64,000 bases of DNA, taken from positions 11,838 to 75,837 of the forward strand of contig CALFUV010000008.1 in the NCBI GenBank assembly GCA_937929825.1, read 5' to 3'. The position numbers and the translations under genes are program-made. The DNA is from an uncultured Patescibacteria group bacterium. Lineage in GTDB: Bacteria; Patescibacteriota; Patescibacteriia; Veblenbacterales; UBA10138. Shown piece after piece: positions 29,365 through 63,382 of this stretch. Under the pieces are notes generated by a model, which saw nothing but the letters and a program-made list of their open reading frames with translations, ran no database searches and had not been told where the DNA came from. The stretch's first letter is position 1. Every line of letters begins with the position of its first letter.

Positions 29365-30690
29365 ATGCTCAAAAAAATAATATCAATAATATTTATTGCC
29401 ATTATTTTTTTTTCTCCCACCATAAACTCAGCTCAAAGTAGTGTGCCGGTCTATTTTTTTTGGGGAGATGGTTGTCCGCATTGTGTGGCGGCTAAACCTT
29501 TTTTACAGGAGTTGGAACGACAAAACCCCAGTGTTAAAGTATATTCTTTTGAAGTTTGGTACAGTACTGCTAATCGGAAATTATTAACAGATACAGCTAA
29601 AGAATTGAAAATAGATGTCAAGGGTGTGCCTTTTATTGTAGTGGGACAGGAATATGTAACTGGTTTTTATAATGCTGAAACCACAGGCAGACAAATACAA
29701 ACCTATGTGGAAAGATGTATGGCGGCTGGTTGTGTAGATATTGTTGGTCCACTGGCAGGACTTACGTCAGTCAAACCATTAGCACCAGAACCACCTATTG
29801 GTTCGGCTGATACTAAACCACAACCGGTAGAGCCGGTAGACACATTTATAGAAATAAATCCGCAGCCAGAGGAATCGGAATTATCAATTAAGACAGAGGA
29901 TCAGAGTAATATCGCAATAGAAGAAGATCTAAGTCCGATTCCGGAAAGTTTACGTTTACCTTTAGTGGGTGAGATTAAAACAAAACACTTATCATTGCCA
30001 TTACTAACCATTATTATTGCCGCGCTTGATGGTTTTAATCCATGTGCCATGTGGGTTTTGGTTTTTTTAATTGGTTTATTGTTGGGTGTAACTGATGTTA
30101 AACGGCGTTGGTTATTAGGCAGTACTTTCATAGTAGCCTCAGCCGCGGTCTATTTTGTTTTCCTGGCTGCCTGGCTTAACCTGATTCTTTTTATTGGCGC
30201 TATTTTAATAATAAGAATCATAATTGGTTTGGTAGCCATTGGTGGTGGAGCTTATAGTTTGCGGGAATATTTCCTAAAGCGGGATGAAACTTGCAAAGTA
30301 ACCGCGCCAGATAAGCGCCGGCGGGTTTTTGATCGCCTAAAGGCCATCAGCCAAGAAAAAAGATTATGGTTAGCTCTAGGTGGTATTATTCTCTTAGCTT
30401 TTGCCGTTAATTTGGTAGAGCTTATTTGTTCGGCTGGATTGCCGGCGGTTTATACACAGATATTAGCTTTGTCGCCCATGCCTCATTGGCAATATTATCT
30501 TTATCTTCTTCTCTACATATTTATTTTTATGCTGGATGATATGATAGTGTTTGCTGTGGCTATGGTCACTCTACAAATTACCGGTTTGACTACTAAATAT
30601 ACCCGTTGGGCTCATCTAATTGGTGGTATACTCATGGTTATAGTTGGCCTGCTACTCATATTTAAGCCTCAATGGTTGATGTTTGGTTAG
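29365..30690 (+). CDS. Thioredoxin/DsbA-like domain (CPHC) fused to a DsbD/CcdA-like two-cysteine membrane domain (ScsB/DsbD-like)
   Basis: Signal/anchor, then FFWGDGCPHCVAAKPF (Trx fold), a linker, and TM helices carrying GFNPCAMWV and ICSAGLP, which correspond to the CcdA cysteines. Confidence 0.5.
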   Translation: MLKKIISIIFIAIIFFSPTINSAQSSVPVYFFWGDGCPHCVAAKPFLQELERQNPSVKVYSFEVWYSTANRKLLTDTAKELKIDVKGVPFIVVGQEYVTGFYNAETTGRQIQTYVERCMAAGCVDIVGPLAGLTSVKPLAPEPPIGSADTKPQPVEPVDTFIEINPQPEESELSIKTEDQSNIAIEEDLSPIPESLRLPLVGEIKTKHLSLPLLTIIIAALDGFNPCAMWVLVFLIGLLLGVTDVKRRWLLGSTFIVASAAVYFVFLAAWLNLILFIGAILIIRIIIGLVAIGGGAYSLREYFLKRDETCKVTAPDKRRRVFDRLKAISQEKRLWLALGGIILLAFAVNLVELICSAGLPAVYTQILALSPMPHWQYYLYLLLYIFIFMLDDMIVFAVAMVTLQITGLTTKYTRWAHLIGGILMVIVGLLLIFKPQWLMFG

Positions 30691-34487: not shown

Positions 34488-36107
34488 ATGCCCCAAACCA
34501 TTCGCACAATTTTGGAAGAACTTTATCAGCTTGATCCGGAACTTCGTGCCCGGGAGGCTGAATTGGCACCGTTAATACTGCGCTTGGTTCAGGCTAAACC
34601 AAATATTAAACCATCACCTAAATTTTTCGTTGATTTAAAGGTAAAACTTATGAATAAAGAAAAAGAATTAATGTCAGTTAATAAAGAGTTAGTACAGGAG
34701 ACCAAATTAAATCCGTGGTTTAATTTAGCTTCTTTTATGCGCCAGCCTTATTTACTTACAATGGTGGCTTTAGTGGCTTTTATGCTCATTTTAATTTCCA
34801 GCTTACCCGGTACTATACGCCGGTTTAATCGGATTAATCAGTTTGAGCCGGGTATTACTCGTTTACCAAATGGCGCCTTTGGTAATTTATTAGCTGTATC
34901 TGATGGTACGCCGATTGGTTGGGGTGGAGCTGGTAAGACGACTAGGCCTTCTACAAGTGATATTCGTACAGTTACAAATCAATTTTCTCCGACGCCGGCT
35001 GGTTTGGGCGGGGAAGCTGGTATGAATCAGGCTATGATTTATCCTTATCCGGAGTACTCTTATAAATTTATAGGCGCAAAAATGGAAGATTTACCAGCAC
35101 AGGTTGATGTCTTGCGGAGAATTAAAAATGTTGGTTTATCCGTGAACAACAGCTTTCTAAGAAGTTTTGACGTGGGTAGTTTTAAATTGGATAGTTTCTC
35201 CGGTGCCAGTTTATCCCAAATTACTCTTACTGAAGATAAAGAATACGGTTATATTATAAGCATTGATTTTTTGGAAGGAATGGTGAATGTTTACGAAAAT
35301 TGGCGTCGTTGGCCACAGCCGTTTAATGATTGTCACGACGAAGATTGTTATCACCGCTTGCAAATTAGACCGGAGCAGGTGCCGGTTGATGAAAGTTTAA
35401 TTGCCATTGCCAACGCTTGGCTGCGCGAACATGGCATTAATACTTCTGCCTATGGTACGCCTTTTATACAAGATGATTGGCGCTTGTATTACGATCAAGC
35501 TGAAGATAAATCTACGGTTTATGTGCCAGATATTATCACGGTTATTTATCCAATTAAGATTAATAATTTCTCAGTATACGAATATAGCGGTAATCAAATA
35601 GGTTTGGGCGTGAATATCAATATTCGTTACAATCGCGTTTCCGGTATGTGGAATATGTCTAGTCTGCGTTTTGAAGCTTCATCTTATGAAGCGGAAACTG
35701 ATTGGGATACTTTGCTAAAATACGCTACGTCCGGCGGGCAGGGTTATCCTACGCCTTTGATTTACCCGACAAACGACTTTGATCAAAATAAAAAAGTTGA
35801 ATTTAATTTAGAAACCCCCACCATTGGTTATTTGAGATACTGGCATTATCAAAATGGCGATAATCAGGAGTTATTATTACCGGCCCTTGTTTTTCCGGTG
35901 AAACCGGCAAAGCAGAACTATGTTTTTATGCCCCAAAATGTTGTAGTCCCATTGGTCAAAGAATTTTTACAATCAAGTTATATTGATGGACCGGTTAAAA
36001 TAATGCCGGCTGTAGGTGTGCCTGATGTGCCGGTATCTTCAGATGGCAGTGGCGGTGTGACTGAACAGTCTGTTAACCCAAGTATTGAGTCAATGTTAAT
36101 TCGTTAA
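34488..36107 (+). CDS. Putative anti-sigma factor: single-pass membrane protein co-transcribed with the ECF sigma factor
   Basis: Starts 3 nt after the sigma-factor stop. Roughly 85-aa cytoplasmic N-terminus, one TM (YLLTMVALVAFMLILISSL), about 430-aa extracytoplasmic domain. The architecture is typical of ECF anti-sigma factors; this is inferred, not shown. Confidence 0.35.
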   Translation: MPQTIRTILEELYQLDPELRAREAELAPLILRLVQAKPNIKPSPKFFVDLKVKLMNKEKELMSVNKELVQETKLNPWFNLASFMRQPYLLTMVALVAFMLILISSLPGTIRRFNRINQFEPGITRLPNGAFGNLLAVSDGTPIGWGGAGKTTRPSTSDIRTVTNQFSPTPAGLGGEAGMNQAMIYPYPEYSYKFIGAKMEDLPAQVDVLRRIKNVGLSVNNSFLRSFDVGSFKLDSFSGASLSQITLTEDKEYGYIISIDFLEGMVNVYENWRRWPQPFNDCHDEDCYHRLQIRPEQVPVDESLIAIANAWLREHGINTSAYGTPFIQDDWRLYYDQAEDKSTVYVPDIITVIYPIKINNFSVYEYSGNQIGLGVNINIRYNRVSGMWNMSSLRFEASSYEAETDWDTLLKYATSGGQGYPTPLIYPTNDFDQNKKVEFNLETPTIGYLRYWHYQNGDNQELLLPALVFPVKPAKQNYVFMPQNVVVPLVKEFLQSSYIDGPVKIMPAVGVPDVPVSSDGSGGVTEQSVNPSIESMLIR

Positions 36108-47166: not shown

Positions 47167-49098
47167 ATGTTTAAGATTAATAAATTAGGTAAGCCTAGCG
47201 ATCAGCATCCTCACGGAGCTATTGCTTTGTTGATGTTGATGGGTGTGGCAGTATTTAGTTTAATGGTATTGGTTAGCGTTAGCACTTTAACTAGTCATAT
47301 TTTTTCCATTACTTTGGATCAGGTAGCTACCGAGAAAACTTTTTACGCGGCTGAGGCTGGCTTAAATGAAGGTTTATACAGGCTTATACGCAATCCTTGG
47401 CCACAAACTTTTAGTTTTAATTTTAATAATGTAGCTGTGGATGTGAGCATAAGCACCAGTTTCGGTAATCCTTATCAGCGGCTAGTAACTTCCCGAGCGC
47501 AAGATTCTACCGGCAAGGTGCGCGAGTTGGAAATAGTTGCCAATACTTCTTCTTTTGCCGGTGGTTTTATTGGGGCCGTGCACGCTGGCTCGGGTGGTGT
47601 TTATATAAACAATAATGCTATGGTTATTGGCGATCTTTATTCTAACGGCAATGTGACCGGTGGCGCCAATGGTGTGGTGCAGGGCAATATTTCATCTGTA
47701 GCTTCAGCTATTCAAAATCAGGCTCATAATAATCATGATAGTGAATTTATTTTTGGACAATCAGCAACTTATAGTGATGTGGCCCAAAGTTTTACACCAA
47801 ACGTTTCAGGACAAATTAATCAGGTGCGCTTAAAAATAAGAGCTATTGGCAATCCTAATTTAAGTAATACCTGGTGGCGTATTACTGCTGATAATGGTGG
47901 CAAGCCAGCCACCTCCGCCTTGGCCACTGGTTCTTTTAACAACGCCAGCGTTGGTCAGACTAGTAGCACGCTTGATTGGTTAATTATAAATATTCCATCT
48001 CCGGTGAGCGTAACCGCTGGAACCAAGTATTGGTTATTGATTGACTCAGTAAACAACGTTAATAATCACTGGGCTTGGGCTAAGGATAGTACAGATGCTT
48101 ATGCCGGCGGCAGTGCTTTTTATACTAATAACTGGACTAGTTCAGGGGCTGTTTGGGCTCCACTTGAATCAGATGGCGCTGATTTGGCGTTTCAGGTTTG
48201 GTATGGTGATCCTTATGTAATGTTGGAAAATATTGTTGTAAGAGGCGAAGCCAGAGCTAATAGAATTACCGGCACTGGCGGTAGCAGTTATGCCAAGGTT
48301 TGCGGCAATGCTTATTATGATTCTATCCTGCAGTCTTCATATGATTTTCTTATGTCAACCTCAAATCAATACAATAATTTAAGAAATTCAAATTGTGGTT
48401 CATCTGCCACTATAAATAATTATAATTTAGCCGACAATGATCGTAGGATTTACCCAATGCCTATAACCGATCAACATATTCAAACTTGGCAGAATGAAAT
48501 TACATCAGGTGGCCAGCCAGAACTTTATCCCAATCCAAGTGATTGTCCGCAAAGTTATTCCAGCGGAACATATTGCGTAACTAGTAATACAACTCTGGGT
48601 CATCAAAAAATAAACGGAAATTTATATGTGGGTATTAAAACTACCGGTGGAGCTGAGCCAACACTAACTTTAACCGGTAATGTTTGGGTGACGGGAAACA
48701 TAATTTTGAATAATAACGGAGTTATTCGATTGGATCCCAGTCTGGAGGCGGCTAGTAGTGTATTGATTGCTGACGGTATTGTTGTTTTGGAAAATAATTA
48801 TCAGATTAATGGTTCTGGCAACCCAAAGAGTTTTTTACTTTTAGTAACACGTAATAATAGCCTTGGCAGTACGCCAGCTGTTTCTACCAGAAACAATTCT
48901 GCCTCTTTGGTTGTAGCCGCGCCTAATGGTGAGATTTTAGTAAAACAGGGAGGTATTGCTAAAGCCACTGCTGCCTATAAACTTACTTTAGAGAATGGCA
49001 GTCAGGTGATTTTTGATAATAATTTGTTGGAATTATTAGTGCCGTCGGCTAATCAGTCAGCATTGTGGGTAGAGTTTAATTCGTGGAGGGAAAAGTAA
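47167..49098 (+). CDS. Large (643 aa) N-terminally anchored pilus-associated protein (possible tip adhesin / PilY1-like role, inferred from context only)
   Basis: Hydrophobic N-terminus HPHGAIALLMLMGVAVFSLMVLV without Glu +5; G/N/S/T-rich beta-type sequence; sits inside the pilin gene run. Confidence 0.35.
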   Translation: MFKINKLGKPSDQHPHGAIALLMLMGVAVFSLMVLVSVSTLTSHIFSITLDQVATEKTFYAAEAGLNEGLYRLIRNPWPQTFSFNFNNVAVDVSISTSFGNPYQRLVTSRAQDSTGKVRELEIVANTSSFAGGFIGAVHAGSGGVYINNNAMVIGDLYSNGNVTGGANGVVQGNISSVASAIQNQAHNNHDSEFIFGQSATYSDVAQSFTPNVSGQINQVRLKIRAIGNPNLSNTWWRITADNGGKPATSALATGSFNNASVGQTSSTLDWLIINIPSPVSVTAGTKYWLLIDSVNNVNNHWAWAKDSTDAYAGGSAFYTNNWTSSGAVWAPLESDGADLAFQVWYGDPYVMLENIVVRGEARANRITGTGGSSYAKVCGNAYYDSILQSSYDFLMSTSNQYNNLRNSNCGSSATINNYNLADNDRRIYPMPITDQHIQTWQNEITSGGQPELYPNPSDCPQSYSSGTYCVTSNTTLGHQKINGNLYVGIKTTGGAEPTLTLTGNVWVTGNIILNNNGVIRLDPSLEAASSVLIADGIVVLENNYQINGSGNPKSFLLLVTRNNSLGSTPAVSTRNNSASLVVAAPNGEILVKQGGIAKATAAYKLTLENGSQVIFDNNLLELLVPSANQSALWVEFNSWREK

Positions 49099-56610: not shown

Positions 56611-56749
56611 ACATTTTATTATAGCATAGCTTTTTTGAATTTAAGCAAAAAATTGGCAAAAACATCTAAATAAGGTATAATATATAAGTAATTTTACAAT
56701 TAGTAGAGATTATTTTAGATAAATAATCTCAAAACGTTAAAATAAGACT

Positions 56750-57151
56750 ATGAGTCTAAAAATTCCATTTTATCAGGATGCCGGTTTATTAATGATAAGA
56801 CTTGGTTTGGGAATAGTTTTTATAGCTCATGGTTGGAGTAAGTGGCAGTCTTTAGTAGAAACAAACCTATTTTTTTCTAATCTTGCTTTGCCAGTTTGGA
56901 CTGTATATTTAGTTATATTTTTTGAATTAATTGGTGGGTTGGCAGTAGTGTTTGGTTGGTTAGCCAGATTTTTTAGTTTTGGTTTGGTAATCATAATGAT
57001 AGTTGCCATAGCTAAAGTAAAATTGACAAGCGGATTTATTGGTGGTTATGAATTTGATTTTGTTTTAATGCTTATGGCTCTAAGTATTGTTTTAGCTGGC
57101 TCTGGTAGGTATAAAATGCGGCTGGCGAATTGGGGAAATAATTCTTATTAG
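56750..57151 (+). CDS. DoxX-family membrane protein
   Basis: LMIRLGLGIVFIAHGWSKW...; four TM helices, 133 aa. Confidence 0.65.
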   Translation: MSLKIPFYQDAGLLMIRLGLGIVFIAHGWSKWQSLVETNLFFSNLALPVWTVYLVIFFELIGGLAVVFGWLARFFSFGLVIIMIVAIAKVKLTSGFIGGYEFDFVLMLMALSIVLAGSGRYKMRLANWGNNSY

Positions 57152-57152
57152 A

Positions 57153-58151
57153 ATGTCTGAGCACAAAACCAATATACAGAATATTTTTGATACTATTATA
57201 ATTGGCGGCGGAGCTGCTGGTTTGTCAGCCGCCATTTATGCTGAAAGATATTTAATGAAGACTTTAGTACTGGAAGGCAGGGAGCCGGGCGGAGAAACCG
57301 CTACTGCTTGGATAATTGAAAATTACCCCGGCATCCCCAGTATTGATGGTTATGATTTAATTAAAGCTATGAAAGCTCAAGCTGAAGGTCCGTTAACTAC
57401 TTTTGTGTCTGATTATGCTAGTGAAGTATTATTGCAGGATCATTGTTTTACAGTTAAATCGGAATCCGGTCAAGATTTTTGGGGTAAAACTATAATATTT
57501 GCTCATGGTTCTCGTCGTCGGCGTCTAGGATTGCCTAATGAAAAAAGATTATTAGGTCATGGGGTTTCTTATTGCATAACCTGTGATGCGCCTCTTTATA
57601 AAGATAAGGTTGTAGCTATTGTGGGCGGAGGAGATGCTTCGGTTAAAGGAGCTTGTTTAGCCTCTCAATATTCTGCCAAAATATATTTCATTACCAGAGA
57701 AAAAAATATTAAGGCTGAGCCAGCTAATATGGAAATATTTAATAAAAAGAATAATATTGAAATTATTTATGAAACAGAAGTTAAAGAATTATTAGGCAAA
57801 GAATATTTAAGCGGCATTGTTTTAAATCGTTCTTATAAGGGTAGCGAAAAACTAGAAGTACAGGGTATTTTTATTGAAATTGGATCTGAACCTAATTCCT
57901 CTTTACCTAAAAGTTTGGGAGTAAAAGTTGATGAAAGTGGTTATATAGAAGTTGATGCCATGATGCGAACCAGTGTTCATGGTGTTTATGCCGCCGGCGA
58001 CATTACCAATGCTACAGGAAGTTTTAAGCAGGATATCGTGGCTGCAGCCCAAGGCGCTATTGCGGCCACTTCAGCTTATCGGGATTTAGGTTTACACGGC
58101 AATCAGGCTTGTTTACATCATGCCATTATACCTAAATATTTTAAGTCATGA
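57153..58151 (+). CDS. trxB: Thioredoxin-disulfide reductase-like FAD/NAD(P)-dependent oxidoreductase (TrxB family)
   Basis: FAD motif DTIIIGGGAAGLSAAIYA; redox-active CxxC in SYCITCDA; NAD(P) motif VAIVGGGDA; C-terminal GVYAAGD. Confidence 0.65.
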   Translation: MSEHKTNIQNIFDTIIIGGGAAGLSAAIYAERYLMKTLVLEGREPGGETATAWIIENYPGIPSIDGYDLIKAMKAQAEGPLTTFVSDYASEVLLQDHCFTVKSESGQDFWGKTIIFAHGSRRRRLGLPNEKRLLGHGVSYCITCDAPLYKDKVVAIVGGGDASVKGACLASQYSAKIYFITREKNIKAEPANMEIFNKKNNIEIIYETEVKELLGKEYLSGIVLNRSYKGSEKLEVQGIFIEIGSEPNSSLPKSLGVKVDESGYIEVDAMMRTSVHGVYAAGDITNATGSFKQDIVAAAQGAIAATSAYRDLGLHGNQACLHHAIIPKYFKS

Positions 58152-59617
58152 GTAATTTAAATATTATTCATATTGCCAGCGAAGTATATCCTTATAGTAA
58201 ATCGGGTGGTTTAGCTGATGTAGCCAGATCACTGCCGCGGGCATTAGCCGGTTTTGGTCATCAAGTAGCAGTTATTACTCCTTATTACAGTTCGTTGGAT
58301 AATTCCGGTAAAGATTTGGAACTTTTAGATAAAAAACTAAACATAATTTTGCCCGATAGTAGTCAAGTAGGAGCTCGTTTATGGCGCGGATGGTTGCGGC
58401 ATGATTTACCAGTTTATCTTATTGAGCAAGCCGAATATTTTGGCGCTCATCGTCCAATGTATGGTGATCCTAATGATAACCGGCGTTTTTTTGTTTTTAA
58501 TTTAGCCGCACTGGAAGCTATAAAGTTACTAGGGTACAAACCAGATATAATCCATTGTCATGATTGGCAAACAGGATTAATTCCTCATTTATTGCACATT
58601 GAGCAGAATAAGCAAACAGAAACCTTTAAAAAAGCGCATACTGTTTTTACTATCCATAATTTAACTTTTCAGTTTGGCCATAATTGGTGGGAGGTACCTG
58701 ATGATTTAAGGGATAGTGGTCGTAATAGTTTACCGGAGTGGTGGGATGAGGAGGCCTGGGAAAGAGTTAATTTTGCCAAACGCGCCATTATGCAATCTGA
58801 TTTTATAACCACCGTTTCTGAGCAATATGCCGAGGAAATAATGACTAAAGATTTTGGCCAGGATTTAAACAGAATTTTATTTAAACGTAAAAATAAGTTA
58901 GCCGGTGTGATAAATGGTCTTGATTATCGCGATTATAACCCGGCAACTGATCCGGGATTATACGTGAACTACGATTTAACATCTTTAGACCGGAAGTATG
59001 AAAATAAAAAATATTTACAAAGATCATTTGGTTTACCAGAACGCGCTCGCGTGCCGGTAATAGGAATGGTTTCCCGACTTACAGAGCAGAAAGGCTTTGA
59101 TCTTTTACTGGAAATAATAGAGCCGTTATTAAGACTGGATTTGCAGCTTATTATTATGGGCGGAGGTGATAGTTATTATGCTAAGATTTTGAATAGGATT
59201 GCTCATAAGTATAAGTCCAAAATGGCTGTTCATTTGGAATTTGATGCAGAAAGAGCTACCCAGGTTTATGCCGGCAGTGATATGTTCTTAATGCCTTCTC
59301 GTTTTGAACCTTGTGGTTTAGGGCAGATGATAAGTTTAAGATATGGATCTATTCCCATAGTTCATGCTACAGGTGGATTGGCTGATACCATTCAGGATTA
59401 TAATCCACGTTCGCATAAAGGCAATGGTTTTGTTTTTCGTACCTATGATTCACGTGATTTACTGGTAGCCATTACACGTGCAGTGGTAAGTTTTCGTTAT
59501 GAAAAAGATTGGCGCAAATTAGTGGAACAGGGTATGCACCAGTCTTTTTCTTGGCAGGTGCCGGCTAGTAAATACTTATTAATTTATCGCAAAATTATTC
59601 GTTCAACTGTATCTTAA
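58148..59617 (+). CDS. glgA: Glycogen (starch) synthase, GT5 (paralog 1)
   Basis: N-terminal IIHIASEVYPYSKSGGLADVARSLPRAL (K-x-GGL motif); C-terminal GT-B region with PSRFEPCGL. Confidence 0.8.
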   Translation: MSNLNIIHIASEVYPYSKSGGLADVARSLPRALAGFGHQVAVITPYYSSLDNSGKDLELLDKKLNIILPDSSQVGARLWRGWLRHDLPVYLIEQAEYFGAHRPMYGDPNDNRRFFVFNLAALEAIKLLGYKPDIIHCHDWQTGLIPHLLHIEQNKQTETFKKAHTVFTIHNLTFQFGHNWWEVPDDLRDSGRNSLPEWWDEEAWERVNFAKRAIMQSDFITTVSEQYAEEIMTKDFGQDLNRILFKRKNKLAGVINGLDYRDYNPATDPGLYVNYDLTSLDRKYENKKYLQRSFGLPERARVPVIGMVSRLTEQKGFDLLLEIIEPLLRLDLQLIIMGGGDSYYAKILNRIAHKYKSKMAVHLEFDAERATQVYAGSDMFLMPSRFEPCGLGQMISLRYGSIPIVHATGGLADTIQDYNPRSHKGNGFVFRTYDSRDLLVAITRAVVSFRYEKDWRKLVEQGMHQSFSWQVPASKYLLIYRKIIRSTVS

Positions 59618-59626
59618 ATAAATATT

Positions 59627-61039
59627 ATGACCAAATTAATTTGGGCTAATTTTCTGCATATTTATCAACCACCAACCCAAAAACCATATTGGATTAAGCG
59701 GGTGGCAGAAGAATCCTATCGTAAGATAACTAAAGGTTTATTAATGGCTCCTCAAGCCCAAATAACCATGAATATCAACGGGGTATTATTGGAACTTTTA
59801 GAATCTCATGGCTATGTTGATATTATTCATGATTTGCGGGAGTTACTAATACGTGGGCAACTGGAGCTTACTGGTTCTGCCAAATATCACGCACTTTTGC
59901 CCTTTTTACCACCCTCAGAAGTAGAAAGACAAATTAGGTTAAACGAAGAAACTTTGCAAAGATTTTTTGGCAACGATTGGGTTAAGAAAGGTTTTTTCCC
60001 CCCGGAAATGGCTTTTTCATCTGAATTAGCCAGTATAATTGCCGGGCTTGGTTATAAATGGGTGATAGTTGATGAATTATCTTTTCCAAAAGATCGGGGC
60101 AGGGTTGATTATTCTCAAGTGTACGATGTTGCTGGGTTGTCTGATTTTTCTATTTTCTTTCGTGAACGCCGTATGAGTTGGGTAATACTTTCCGGGCAGA
60201 TTGGCACCGGCAAGTTGCTTATTAAAAGTTTAGGTGACAGGCTTTATCATAAGGAATATTTATTAACCGCCATGGATGGTGAAACTTTTGGTCATCATCG
60301 TCCTGGTTTGGAACAATTATTATTTGAAATTTATAATGAGTCTGAGTTACCAACCGCTAAAGTATCTGAATTGTTATTGATTTTTCCACATCAGCAAGTA
60401 AACCCCCGCTCTTCAACTTGGGCTTTGATGGAAAAAGATTTAGAACAAAAGAAACCTTTTTCTCGTTGGTATGATGAGGATAACGATATTCATAAAATGC
60501 AGTGGCAATTAACTAATTTAGCTTTGTCGACTGTAGCCGGCGCACCGGCTGATGACCCCGGTTATACCCGAGCTCGTGAATCATTGGATAGGGCGCTGCA
60601 TTCTGATCAGTACTGGTGGGCATCTGCTAGGCCGTGGTGGAGTATAGAAATGATTGAACGTGGTGCCAAAGAATTATATGATACCGTGTTAGCCACGCCG
60701 GGAGTTAGTGAAAAGACAAAAGAAGATGCTAAGCATTTGTATCATACTATTGTTTTTACAGCTTTTGACTGGCAACGTTCGGGTTTGGTAGATGAGTTAT
60801 CGCGGCGTGAAGACGAGGATATCAGACAGCGGGTAGATGTTGGTTTGCCGCAGTTACCACGTTCAGAGGTTGATAAGATGGTTAAACGTTTAAGTCAGGA
60901 AATGAAAATGATGTCTGCACAGCAGGAGTATGAGCGAGCTGCACAAATTAGAGATCGTATTGCTGAACTACAAAGGTACGCGGCTGATGTTAGCGTACCA
61001 CAAGCCTCACCGGAAGGGGATTCAGAGTGGAATCAATAA
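59627..61039 (+). CDS. Glycoside hydrolase family 57 enzyme (alpha-glucan branching/amylase type) with a C-terminal UVR-like motif
   Basis: ANFLHIYQPPTQ (GH57 HxHQP-type N-terminal motif), TAMDGETFGHH, and C-terminal QEYERAAQIRDRIAELQ (a UVR motif). Confidence 0.55.
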   Translation: MTKLIWANFLHIYQPPTQKPYWIKRVAEESYRKITKGLLMAPQAQITMNINGVLLELLESHGYVDIIHDLRELLIRGQLELTGSAKYHALLPFLPPSEVERQIRLNEETLQRFFGNDWVKKGFFPPEMAFSSELASIIAGLGYKWVIVDELSFPKDRGRVDYSQVYDVAGLSDFSIFFRERRMSWVILSGQIGTGKLLIKSLGDRLYHKEYLLTAMDGETFGHHRPGLEQLLFEIYNESELPTAKVSELLLIFPHQQVNPRSSTWALMEKDLEQKKPFSRWYDEDNDIHKMQWQLTNLALSTVAGAPADDPGYTRARESLDRALHSDQYWWASARPWWSIEMIERGAKELYDTVLATPGVSEKTKEDAKHLYHTIVFTAFDWQRSGLVDELSRREDEDIRQRVDVGLPQLPRSEVDKMVKRLSQEMKMMSAQQEYERAAQIRDRIAELQRYAADVSVPQASPEGDSEWNQ

Positions 61040-61046
61040 AAATACT

Positions 61047-62456
61047 ATGCAAATATTTTTTGTAGCTTCAGAAGTAACTCCCATTGCCAAAGTAGGCGGT
61101 TTAGGTGATGTAATTGGTGCTCTACCCAAAGCTCTTTATAAATTAGGTGTTAAAGTTTCCATTATTACCGGTTATTATGGAACACACGACGAAAATAAAT
61201 ATCCTACTAAAATTTTATTTAAATCTAAGTTATTTTGGGGTGTTAATGATATTATTTATACAGTCAGGCAGGGGGTTTTGCCCGGCAGTCGGGTAAAAGT
61301 TTATTTTATCGATCAGCCGGAAATAATTGGTTCTGGAAGTGTATATGATAGCCGTACAGCTTTAGCTAACAATCAATCAGAAATAGAGAGATTTTTATTT
61401 TTATGCAAGGCAGCTGTTTTTTTGCCGGGATTTATTGGTATAAAAAATGATATTTGGCATTTACATGATTGGCACGCCGCTGCTTTAGTAGAATTTTTAT
61501 CTCCTGATTCAGCGCCAACATTACTAACAATACATAATTTAGCTAATCAAGGTTGGGCTACTCAGGATACTTTAGCTAAAGCTGGTATATTAACACAAAA
61601 ACAAGAGATAAATATATTTCGTCTTGGTTTGGAAAAAGCTACTTGGCTTTCCACGGTTAGCCCCACTTATGCGCAGGAAATTCAGAAGAGTCCGGAAGGT
61701 GAGGGTTTGGAAGAAGTTATTAAAGCTCGTAGACATGAATTAACAGGTATAGTAAATGGTGTGGATATTGATTTTTTTAATCCAGTAACAGATAAATTTT
61801 TAGCTGACAAATTAAAAAGTAATTTAGATGATTTTAAGAATAGCAATAAACAGGCTTTATTTAAATTTATAAATTTACCCCAGTCATCAGTTCCTTTGTT
61901 TGGCATTGTTTCTCGTTTAACTAGCCAAAAAGGCATAGATCTTATAGTAAACGGCTTGGAACCATATTTACAGCAAGGTAGTTTGCGGTTTGTTTTTTTG
62001 GGAATGGGTGACCCGGCTTTAGAAAAGGCCCTCAAAAATTTGGCTGTTTCTTATCCTAGGGCAGTAGCTGGCAAAATAGGTTTTGATGAAAAATTAGCAC
62101 ATTTAATATACGCAGCGTCTGATTTTTTCCTTATGCCCTCGCGTTTTGAGCCCTGCGGTTTGGGGCAATTAATAGCCATGCGTTATGGTTCAGTGCCCAT
62201 TGTACGGTCAACTGGCGGCCTGAAGGATACAGTTATTGATATTGAATTTAATAAAGGTAATGGATTGGTATTTTTTGATTATAAACCAGAAGCTTTGGGG
62301 CAGGCTATTATCAGAGCATTAGATTTGTATAATAATCGTGGTAAACTTGAAATAGTTAGACAAAGCGCCCGCCAAAGAGATTCTTCTTGGTTAACTTCAG
62401 CTAAGGAATATTATAATTTGTATAAATCATTATGCATCCTAAAAAATCAGAATTAA
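61047..62456 (+). CDS. Glycogen (starch) synthase, GT5 (paralog 2)
   Basis: MQIFFVASEVTPIAKVGGLGDVIGALPKAL and PSRFEPCGLGQL. The start is placed at ATG 61047, not the track's 60930, which would overlap GH57 by 110 nt. Confidence 0.75.
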   Translation: MQIFFVASEVTPIAKVGGLGDVIGALPKALYKLGVKVSIITGYYGTHDENKYPTKILFKSKLFWGVNDIIYTVRQGVLPGSRVKVYFIDQPEIIGSGSVYDSRTALANNQSEIERFLFLCKAAVFLPGFIGIKNDIWHLHDWHAAALVEFLSPDSAPTLLTIHNLANQGWATQDTLAKAGILTQKQEINIFRLGLEKATWLSTVSPTYAQEIQKSPEGEGLEEVIKARRHELTGIVNGVDIDFFNPVTDKFLADKLKSNLDDFKNSNKQALFKFINLPQSSVPLFGIVSRLTSQKGIDLIVNGLEPYLQQGSLRFVFLGMGDPALEKALKNLAVSYPRAVAGKIGFDEKLAHLIYAASDFFLMPSRFEPCGLGQLIAMRYGSVPIVRSTGGLKDTVIDIEFNKGNGLVFFDYKPEALGQAIIRALDLYNNRGKLEIVRQSARQRDSSWLTSAKEYYNLYKSLCILKNQN

Positions 62457-63382
62457 GAAAAGATTATATACAAGACAAATACGTTATTATTGCGCCACGT
62501 CGTTTAAGTCGACCGCACGGACGGGATGTAAATTTTGACTTAGCCTCCTTAGCAAAATCATCCGTTAAGAAGGAGAATTGCGTTTTTTGTCCTCCTAATT
62601 TGAAAATTAATGGCGCTTTATTAATTGTTGGCGGTAAAAAAGATTGGCAGATAGTAGTTTTAAAAAATAAATATCCAGCAGTATCGTTAGATAACCCCAA
62701 AGCTTATGGTTCTCAGGAAGTAGTGGTGGAAACACCAGATCATAAATTACAAATGGAGCAATTCACCACCAAACAGATAGCGCAAATATTAGATGTTTAT
62801 GCCATGAGGACTAAATCATTAATGGATAATCCAAAATTGGAATATATACTTATTTTTAAGAATAATGGTGGCCGGGCCGGTGCTTCTTTACAACATGCTC
62901 ATTCACAGATATTTGCCACCGGTTTTTTGCCACCGCATTTGCTTGATAAATCACAAAGGGTGCAGGCTTATAAATTACAAACCGGAAGGTGTGTTTATTG
63001 TGATGTGATTGCCCAGGAAAGCAAGAGCCCGCGTCTCATTTATCAGGATGATTATATGATAGCTTTTGCGCCCTATGCCTCTCTTTATAATTATGAGGTT
63101 TGGTTAATGCCTAAAAGGCATTTGGATAACGTTACAAATCTGTCGGCGCAGGAAATAGCTTCAACTGCCCGTATGTTACAAAAGATAATCCGTAAAGTTG
63201 TTTATGATCTTAAACTACCTTACAATTATTATTTTCATCAGGTAGTGCATGATGAAGATCAGCATTTATATATCAAAATAACTCCGCGTGGCAGTGCCTG
63301 GGCAGGTGTGGAAATAGGATCTGGTGTGGTAGTCAATCCGGTAGCCCCTGAAGAAGCAGCTAGATTTTACCGGGGAAAATAA
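62432..63382 (+). CDS. GalT-family (HIT-like) nucleotidyltransferase: galactose-1-phosphate uridylyltransferase or ADP-glucose phosphorylase-like
   Basis: Zinc-site CVFCPPN and active-site QHAHSQI (H-x-H-x-Q), the two hallmark GalT motifs. Confidence 0.6.
   Translation: MHPKKSELRKDYIQDKYVIIAPRRLSRPHGRDVNFDLASLAKSSVKKENCVFCPPNLKINGALLIVGGKKDWQIVVLKNKYPAVSLDNPKAYGSQEVVVETPDHKLQMEQFTTKQIAQILDVYAMRTKSLMDNPKLEYILIFKNNGGRAGASLQHAHSQIFATGFLPPHLLDKSQRVQAYKLQTGRCVYCDVIAQESKSPRLIYQDDYMIAFAPYASLYNYEVWLMPKRHLDNVTNLSAQEIASTARMLQKIIRKVVYDLKLPYNYYFHQVVHDEDQHLYIKITPRGSAWAGVEIGSGVVVNPVAPEEAARFYRGK

Follow-up and report, generated by a model that had tools for sequence, protein, structure and literature searches.

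A conserved, compact alpha-glucan gene cluster in a Patescibacteria bacterium combines two glycogen synthases with a GH57 enzyme and a GalT-like protein related to At5g18200

A 64-kilobase (kb) stretch of contig CALFUV010000008.1 from an uncultured Patescibacteria group bacterium was analysed (the window, in whose numbering all positions are given; G+C content about 37%). Four consecutive genes in it had been predicted, from the DNA alone, to form an alpha-glucan module: two GT5 glycogen synthases (GlgA1 and GlgA2), a GH57 glycoside hydrolase and a GalT-like nucleotidyltransferase. All four open reading frames (ORFs) are intact and co-oriented on the + strand, and Pfam and NCBIfam searches confirmed their assignments (Table 1). 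The arrangement described as tandem synthases was, however, incorrect, as the GH57 gene lies between GlgA1 and GlgA2, which are only 34% identical. The cluster is a real and conserved feature that goes beyond chance.

Both synthases score above the TIGR02095 cut-off of 328.45 bits over the full-length hidden Markov model. Searching by regular expression recovered K18-x-GGL (KSGGL18), HDW138, RLTEQKG310 and PSRFEPCGL383 in GlgA1, and KVGGL15, HDW, RLTxQKG and PSRFEPCGL in GlgA2, so that the two motifs originally reported, K-x-GGL and PSRFEPCGL, are present in both. We take the GT5 motifs K-x-GGL, HDW, R..QKG and PSRFEPCGL to represent E. coli K15, H161, R300/K305 and E377. The best solved relatives of GlgA1 are plant SSIV (6gne, 292 bits) and then SSI, and those of GlgA2 are the GlgA proteins of Agrobacterium (1rzu, 249.5 bits) and E. 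coli. Both groups of relatives, plant starch synthases and the GlgAs of proteobacteria, use ADP-glucose. On sequence grounds, GlgA1 and GlgA2 are ancient paralogues of distinct types and not the result of a tandem duplication. The GlgA2 ORF is listed from 60930; a start at 61047 fits the homologues and gene calls and avoids an overlap with the GH57 gene.

The GH57 protein carries all five conserved sequence regions (CSRs) of its family (HIYQP, GQLE, FPPE127MA, AMD217GETFGHH and ALHSDQYWW). The catalytic pair, the nucleophile Glu127 in CSR-3 and the proton donor Asp217 in CSR-4, is invariant in 30/30 homologues, and in an alignment with the T. litoralis enzyme Glu127 falls in the nucleophile region. 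The protein has the (beta/alpha)7-barrel catalytic fold, and its AlphaFold2 model has a predicted local distance difference test (pLDDT) score of 87. The original prediction had left the choice between a branching and an amylase-type enzyme. The published fingerprint of GH57 branching enzymes consists of Leu at logo position 23 and Phe followed by a non-aromatic residue at positions 35-36 (Martinovicova & Janecek 2018, PMC6037648), with a C-terminal GBE domain as a further criterion of membership. Instead, the window protein has Thr at position 23 (amylase-type) and Trp-Trp at 35-36 (amylopullulanase-type). Because of this fingerprint we rejected the branching assignment and read the protein as a predicted amylopullulanase/amylase-like hydrolase or trimming enzyme. 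No branching function was identified in the four-gene module.

At the C-terminus of the GH57 protein, residues ~412-451 (60860-61039) form a UvrB/UvrC (UVR) motif, predicted to fold as a two-helix hairpin, which may act as a protein-protein docking element. The motif is conserved across a family of more than 2,400 homologues, whose database names are ‘UvrB/UvrC motif-containing protein’, ‘alpha-amylase/alpha-mannosidase (GH57 family)’, ‘4-alpha-glucanotransferase’ and ‘hypothetical protein’. The first of these names is one of two annotation gaps flagged by this work; the other concerns the GalT-like family, which is listed as ‘DUF4931’ or ‘galactose-1-phosphate uridylyltransferase’.

The GalT-like protein (316 aa) belongs to the class-I GalT branch of the HIT superfamily, its PF01087 score (Table 1) exceeding the cut-off of 22.1 bits. 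Regular expressions located the active-site motif H155-A-H157-S-Q159, the zinc ligands C50 and C53 (CVFC50) together with H104, and a second CxxC site, C187xxC190 (CVYC187), in agreement with the zinc CxxC and HxHxQ motifs first noted. Searched with the single sequence, the best solved relatives were At5g18200 (E = 8e-42), Pyrobaculum GalT (8e-30), human GALT (7e-18) and E. coli GalT (1.5e-16). When a profile built from 20 orthologues was used, the ranking stayed and the margins grew (At5g18200, 195 bits; P. aerophilum GalT, 136; E. coli GalT, 95; human GALT, 83). Furthermore, a neighbour-joining tree (81 family members, root on E. coli GalT) puts At5g18200 into one clade with the window protein and leaves Pyrobaculum GalT outside it in 57/60 bootstraps, so that the protein does not group firmly with galactose-metabolising GalT, the outcome that would have spoken against the earlier proposal.

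Individual residues agree with this placement. A149, a non-proline residue within H-x-H, S/T-G at 297-298 and N-P at 302-303 are common to the window protein, At5g18200 and most of the clade, and the three GalT-named enzymes differ at all of these positions. Both NCBIfam galT equivalog cut-offs are missed (98.6 versus 102.1 bits for TIGR00209; 125.4 versus 448 bits for PRK11720). At5g18200 is an ADP-glucose phosphorylase (PMC6329318, PMC4136846) that catalyses phosphorolytic breakdown of ADP-glucose with a Km of ~7 µM (PMC4136846). By its sequence, the GalT-like protein sides with ADP-glucose phosphorylase over galactose-metabolising GalT, its activity being predicted.

The canonical glycogen genes were searched for by tblastn with E. 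coli GlgC, GlgB, GlgP, GlgX, Pgm, GalU, GalK, GalM and GalE. No match below E = 0.37 was obtained in the window, and none below 1e-4 in the window together with 83 related loci (±10 kb; 1.34 Mb), the galK, galE and galM genes of a Leloir context included. As a control of sensitivity, the same approach recovered GlgA (32-34% identity) and GalT (21%). Likewise, Pfam scans covering 38 ORFs of the window, among them every one of at least 372 amino acids (aa), revealed no GlgC-, GlgB- or GlgP-type gene. The copy of the contig that was read continues for 0.66 kb beyond the window and holds there one 153-aa gene on the opposite strand, with no glgC, glgB or glgP. The absence of these three genes given in the earlier description therefore holds for the window, the adjoining 0.66 kb, where a glgC would have counted against that description, and the ±10 kb of the 83 loci.

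Conservation of the cluster was assessed in a scan of one genome per species, which yielded 80 loci with GalT-like orthologues of 58-83% identity; the counts below come from tblastn and ORF clustering. Close homologues bearing a taxon-specific name are all from Patescibacteria (Candidate Phyla Radiation, CPR). Sufficient sequence upstream of the GalT-like gene was available in 67 Patescibacteria species genomes, 41 of which have a GT5 GlgA immediately upstream, and in 33 of these 41 the GalT-like start lies -4 to +12 nucleotides (nt) from the GlgA stop. Among the loci with at least 6 kb upstream (n=51), GlgA occurs in 35, GH57 in 31 and an APH-family kinase in 29. The commonest layout is YebC-RuvC, [GH15-like], GlgA1, GH57(A), [GH57(B)+UVR], APH kinase, [192-aa P-loop-like], [PHP phosphoesterase], [GDE-like], GlgA2, GalT-like, [ROK kinase], PBP1a. 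In 17 loci the ROK sugar kinase gene follows downstream, and one locus (L091) has PGI nearby. An extended cluster is also carried by the closed genome CP060223.1 (Ca. Nomurabacteria, 1.08 Mb), at about 942-951 kb and read over ±10 kb around it, and the cluster is present on JACKFO010000002.1 (842 kb) and MHKS01000005.1 (534 kb) as well.

The window holds a pared-down form, GlgA1 - GH57(B) - GlgA2 - GalT-like, and shares its flanking context with three loci (L004, L009 and L010). The four-gene order is therefore found in two flanking contexts, YebC-RuvC..PBP1a and that of the window, and since it survived relocation, selection on the unit can be argued. The genes had been called a complete alpha-glucan unit; a genuine module they are, but completeness is not borne out, as no branching fingerprint is present and the clusters of relatives carry extra genes (APH kinase, PHP phosphatase, GH15-like, GDE-like and ROK kinase).

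Between GH57 and GlgA2, relatives have an APH-family kinase, a ~190-aa P-loop-like protein without a Pfam match and a PHP phosphoesterase (for example L027 5908-8425, L032 6755-8989 and L042 6496-8490); the window has none of the three. Four genomes encode a kinase-GH57 fusion (744 aa) and one a kinase-PHP fusion (664 aa). The insert suggests that a sugar or glucan is phosphorylated and dephosphorylated.

More distant homologues of the GalT-like protein were followed on seven contigs, three of which were too short to be informative. Those at 39-42% identity adjoin GT4/GT28 glycosyltransferases in surface-glycan contexts (Wzy, flippase). One complete 631-aa gene (P0250, L086 124-2019) joins a GT4-like domain with a GalT-like one that shares 42% identity with the window protein; it was considered as a GlgA-GalT fusion and rejected, its N-terminal part being GT4-like and not GT5 GlgA. 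In the contexts examined, the recurrent partner of the wider family is a retaining GT-B glycosyltransferase and not specifically a glycogen synthase, and such neighbours and fusions fit a role of these enzymes in handling nucleoside diphosphate (NDP) sugars.

The four genes lie in a run of seven co-oriented + strand ORFs between 56750 and 63996, with successive gaps of 1, -4, 9, 7, -25 and 8 nt (Table 1). The end of the TrxB-like gene and the start of GlgA1 share 4 nt, and the GalT-like gene starts inside the end of GlgA2, with a 25-nt overlap. The transcription unit is probably longer than the four glucan genes, taking in the DoxX and TrxB-like genes upstream and a CPR-C4 protease homologue downstream. 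The promoter match upstream of DoxX is the best in the region, but is a consensus match only; in the promoter and terminator scan of the region, match counts were not above shuffled expectation, and an Rfam search upstream of and within the operon gave no RNA element at E <= 0.1.

Table 1. Coordinates of the genes and the candidate promoter in the seven-gene run.
Feature	Position	Strand	Evidence and remarks
Sigma-70-like promoter match TTGGCA-17-TATAAT (11/12), candidate operon promoter	56653..56681	+	Upstream of DoxX
DoxX-family membrane protein	56750..57151	+	PF07681 69.5 bits; opens packed run; 1-nt gap to next gene
Thioredoxin-reductase-like (TrxB-like) flavoprotein, CITC redox motif	57153..58151	+	PF07992 150 bits
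GlgA1, GT5 glycogen/starch synthase, SSIV/SSI-like paralogue	58148..59617	+	TIGR02095 506.6 bits
GH57 glycoside hydrolase (‘type B’) with C-terminal UVR motif	59627..61039	+	PF03065 92.4 bits; PF02151
GlgA2, GT5 synthase, canonical bacterial GlgA-like paralogue	61047..62456	+	TIGR02095 457.3 bits
GalT-like class-I GalT-family HIT enzyme, At5g18200 type	62432..63382	+	PF01087 60.9 bits
CPR-C4-family cysteine protease homologue, 201 aa	63391..63996	+	Begins 8 nt past GalT-like gene

The TrxB-like protein scores 306.5 bits with TIGR01292, under the cut-off of 343. Its gene is not kept beside the module in other genomes, and DoxX is specific to the lineage of the window and no part of the conserved module; their packing onto GlgA1 hints at redox proteins co-transcribed with glucan genes in this genome only. 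The 201-aa ORF at the downstream end has no Pfam or NCBIfam match. It is 48% identical to the characterised CPR-C4 cysteine protease (PDB 7pjo) and has more than 7,800 homologues, the best 120 of which, at 59-78% identity, come from Patescibacteria and DPANN archaea (Woesearchaeota, Nanoarchaeia); identity of this order across the two groups suggests inter-domain transfer. With its variable gene context this protease homologue was rejected as a member of the module, and it is probably co-transcribed but no functional part of it.

Elsewhere, the window includes genes for a type IV pilus, UvrABC and GroEL. Three further + strand ORFs, at 29365-30690, 34488-36107 and 47167-49098 (441, 539 and 643 aa), gave no Pfam match at E <= 1e-5, the last of them sitting in the type IV pilus gene run.

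We tentatively favour the interpretation that the cluster is the compact form of a widespread Patescibacteria glucan storage operon, in which GlgA and the GalT-like enzyme act together as a reversible, ATP-free shunt, a reading that has nearly as much for it as against it. The two synthases would elongate alpha-1,4 chains from ADP-glucose, and the GH57 enzyme would trim, remodel or mobilise the polymer without branching it. The GalT-like protein would be an NDP-glucose:phosphate nucleotidyltransferase interconverting ADP-glucose and inorganic phosphate (Pi) with ADP and glucose-1-phosphate (G1P), presumably through a covalent His157-nucleoside monophosphate (His157-AMP) intermediate as in At5g18200. 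Its translational coupling to GlgA2 would tie the donor pool of the synthase to the G1P pool, with ADP as a recycled carrier and no ATP spent. Summed over both enzymes, the reaction would be glucan(n) + G1P <-> glucan(n+1) + Pi, which is that of glucan phosphorylase. It follows that the direction of the shunt would be set by G1P, Pi and product solubility, and that the pair could equally replace GlgP. A high ratio of G1P to Pi would favour the loading of glucan, as would an unbranched product dropping out of solution (a GlgC-like role), and G1P would be released when Pi is high (a GlgP-like role).

The equilibrium constant of the At5g18200 reaction, as McCoy et al. are said to have found in 2006, is about 5-40 towards ADP and G1P, and the glucan phosphorylase equilibrium lies at a Pi/G1P ratio of ~3.6. 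Together these values imply that the equilibrium constant of GlgA itself is only ~20 to 140. With ADP in the sub-millimolar range, ADP-glucose would equilibrate at a few micromolar, close to the Km of At5g18200. The role of GlgC stand-in that the original prediction had given the GalT-like enzyme is plausible, and we infer that it would apply only under favourable mass-action conditions.

Several observations weigh against this shunt. In 10 of the 67 genomes RuvC is followed directly by the GalT-like gene and the glg block is missing, and one locus (L092, 8008-13325) has GlgA1-GH57(B)+UVR-GlgA2 without an adjoining GalT-like gene; because of these cases the link between the GalT-like gene and the glg genes is not obligatory. 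The flanking synteny (YebC, RuvC, PBP1a and a TyrRS-like gene) is conserved too, so the adjacency of GlgA and the GalT-like gene may partly be inherited gene order. P. aerophilum GalT (6k5z) is almost as close to the window protein as At5g18200 in raw distance (1.48 versus 1.50), which makes the tree placement moderate evidence, and the plant protein is the sole assayed enzyme of the clade, leaving nucleotide and acceptor specificity as predictions. A glgC, galU or glgP elsewhere in the genome, beyond the window and related loci searched, would make the GalT-like enzyme accessory, and loss of glgC alone does not require a novel source of ADP-glucose. The reversibility of the shunt is a matter of thermodynamic inference. 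Moreover, the GT4/GT28 links of the distant homologues (glycolipids, exopolysaccharides) argue for donor supply and not for mobilisation. These contexts point to supply and the known chemistry of the plant enzyme to breakdown, so that the flux may run either way.

Should supply be the sole function, the GalT-like enzyme would be strictly biosynthetic and the only source of ADP-glucose in genomes that have lost glgC, working either from G1P and ADP or, by HIT chemistry, from ATP and G1P with release of pyrophosphate. We regard this, the original stand-in proposal taken strictly, as possible but unlikely. The lack of GlgC and GalU in the window and the 83 loci, the tight coupling to GlgA2 and the GT4/GT28 neighbours and fusions, which need a donor and not polymer mobilisation, all agree with it, and the downstream ROK kinase and the nearby PGI in L091 fit a feed from glucose to hexose phosphate. 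Yet the equilibrium reportedly found for At5g18200 favours ADP and G1P, and the phosphorylase ratio works against net synthesis when Pi and G1P stand in the proportion usual in cells. The characterised homologue, moreover, has been described as an enzyme of ADP-glucose breakdown (PMC4136846). A general function in NDP-sugar metabolism for envelope or other glycans, with the gene placed near glgA by inherited order, is less probable again. It would account for the ten RuvC-GalT-like genomes, for others with GT4 genes, a 650-aa gene or a pyruvyl transferase upstream instead, for the 39-42% identity homologues in GT4, Wzy, flippase or GT28 contexts and the single fusion, whose glycosyltransferase part is of the GT4 and not the GT5 family, and for the conserved flanking synteny. 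Against it stand the -4 to +12 nt spacing in 33 of 41 cases, which indicates co-translation with GlgA, the persistence of the four-gene order in the relocated context of the window, L004, L009 and L010, and the nearest relative of known activity, an enzyme that works on the same substrate as the synthases.

The two remaining explanations are both improbable. A conventional pyrophosphorylase encoded elsewhere could make UDP- or ADP-glucose, with the GalT-like enzyme merely scavenging or limiting excess NDP-glucose as housekeeping or repair. Some Saccharimonadia genomes do encode a UTP-G1P uridylyltransferase together with a glycogen synthase, and the plant enzyme, with its very low Km for ADP-glucose, is viewed as degradative; however, none of the 83 loci has a gene for such a pyrophosphorylase within 10 kb, and translational coupling to a synthase would be odd for an enzyme that destroys the substrate of that synthase. 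Slightly more doubtful still is a classical Leloir GalT (UDP-glucose:galactose-1-phosphate uridylyltransferase) feeding galactose into G1P and then into glycogen. The Pfam GalT domains, the naming of some orthologues and the fairly close archaeal 6k5z, deposited as GalT (107-136 bits), speak for it, but both NCBIfam galT cut-offs are missed, galK, galE and galM were not found in the window and 83 loci, the proline of H-P-H and other residues of true GalT are replaced as in At5g18200, and the E. coli and human enzymes score far lower.

Some other features of the related loci were noted. At L092, a 122-aa gene of the ‘23S rRNA intervening sequence protein’ family lies between GlgA1 and GH57+UVR, and an IS1595-family transposase ~7 kb downstream of the cluster. 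At L012 (10936-13899), as also at L005-L008, a leucyl-tRNA synthetase gene directly follows the GalT-like gene and encodes a NUDIX domain (residues 422-545) inserted after the editing domain. Contigs L003, L004, L007, L008 and L011, among others, are labelled ‘uncultured Gammaproteobacteria bacterium’ although their GalT-like, GlgA and flanking genes match named Patescibacteria genomes, and the labels are probably wrong.

If the storage operon with its reversible shunt is as we propose, cells may form a glucose polymer, or draw on it, by a route that bypasses the usual ATP-consuming and phosphorylase enzymes. A coupled pair of glgA and GalT-like genes, conserved over dozens of species, would for the first time link the ADP-glucose phosphorylase family to alpha-glucan metabolism by genomic evidence. 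Were the pair to replace GlgC and/or GlgP, energy-limited, ultra-small bacteria could lay down glucose and regain it without spending ATP, a solution distinct from the textbook pathway and relevant to episymbionts that buffer host-derived carbon. A more general form of the idea, which we consider rather unlikely as it stands, is that many Patescibacteria lack both GlgC and GlgP throughout their genomes and use GlgA with ADP-glucose phosphorylase as a two-step, ADP-catalysed, ATP-independent reversible ‘glucan phosphorylase’. In that case a physiological role would be in hand for the At5g18200 family for the first time. A full-text literature search, with subscription literature outside it, brought up neither the cluster nor an ADP-glucose phosphorylase from bacteria. 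The component families are known; their arrangement and the implied logic of the pathway are a new variant of glycogen metabolism.

Compared with the classical glgBXCAP system (GlgC-GlgA-GlgB), the window shares GT5 synthases of the ADP-glucose type with all catalytic motifs. However, the window and the 83 loci are without GlgC, GH13 GlgB, GlgX and GlgP, and in place of one synthase the window has two divergent ones, in an operon with a GH57 and a HIT-family enzyme. The GlgA1/GlgA2 pair of cyanobacteria, one of them SSIII/IV-like, is a closer parallel, as the window likewise combines divergent GT5 enzymes, one SSIV/SSI-like and one canonical; the two isoenzymes of Synechocystis are functionally diverged (PMC13456619). 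Cyanobacteria also have GlgC and GH13 GlgB, whereas the window synthases share a single operon with GH57. The pairing of GH57 with a glycogen synthase is found in Sulfolobus, where a GH57 ‘alpha-amylase’ gene (amyA) is co-transcribed with glgA, and a role for its product in trimming or rearranging intermediates has been proposed (PMC8158581). Unlike the window, the Sulfolobus cluster carries glgC, a glucoamylase gene and glgX (with glgP elsewhere), and has no GalT-like gene.

With GH57 amylopullulanases and AmyC-type enzymes (PDB 9jlr, 2b5d), the window GH57 protein has in common the five regions, the Glu/Asp pair and the Trp-Trp at positions 35-36, and it differs in its C-terminal UVR motif and in an identity of only ~20%. 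AmyC itself was reassigned as a branching enzyme with high hydrolytic activity (PMC6616209); structure alone therefore does not settle the activity of the GH57 protein. At5g18200 (EC 2.7.7.36; PDB 1z84, 2h39) and the GalT-like protein align over their full length within the class-I GalT/HIT fold family, and both have a non-proline HxHxQ, two CxxC zinc sites and the C-terminal motif EIG(S/T)G..NP. Their similarity is only moderate, and whereas the plant gene has no known link to a starch synthase gene, the window gene is translationally coupled to glgA.

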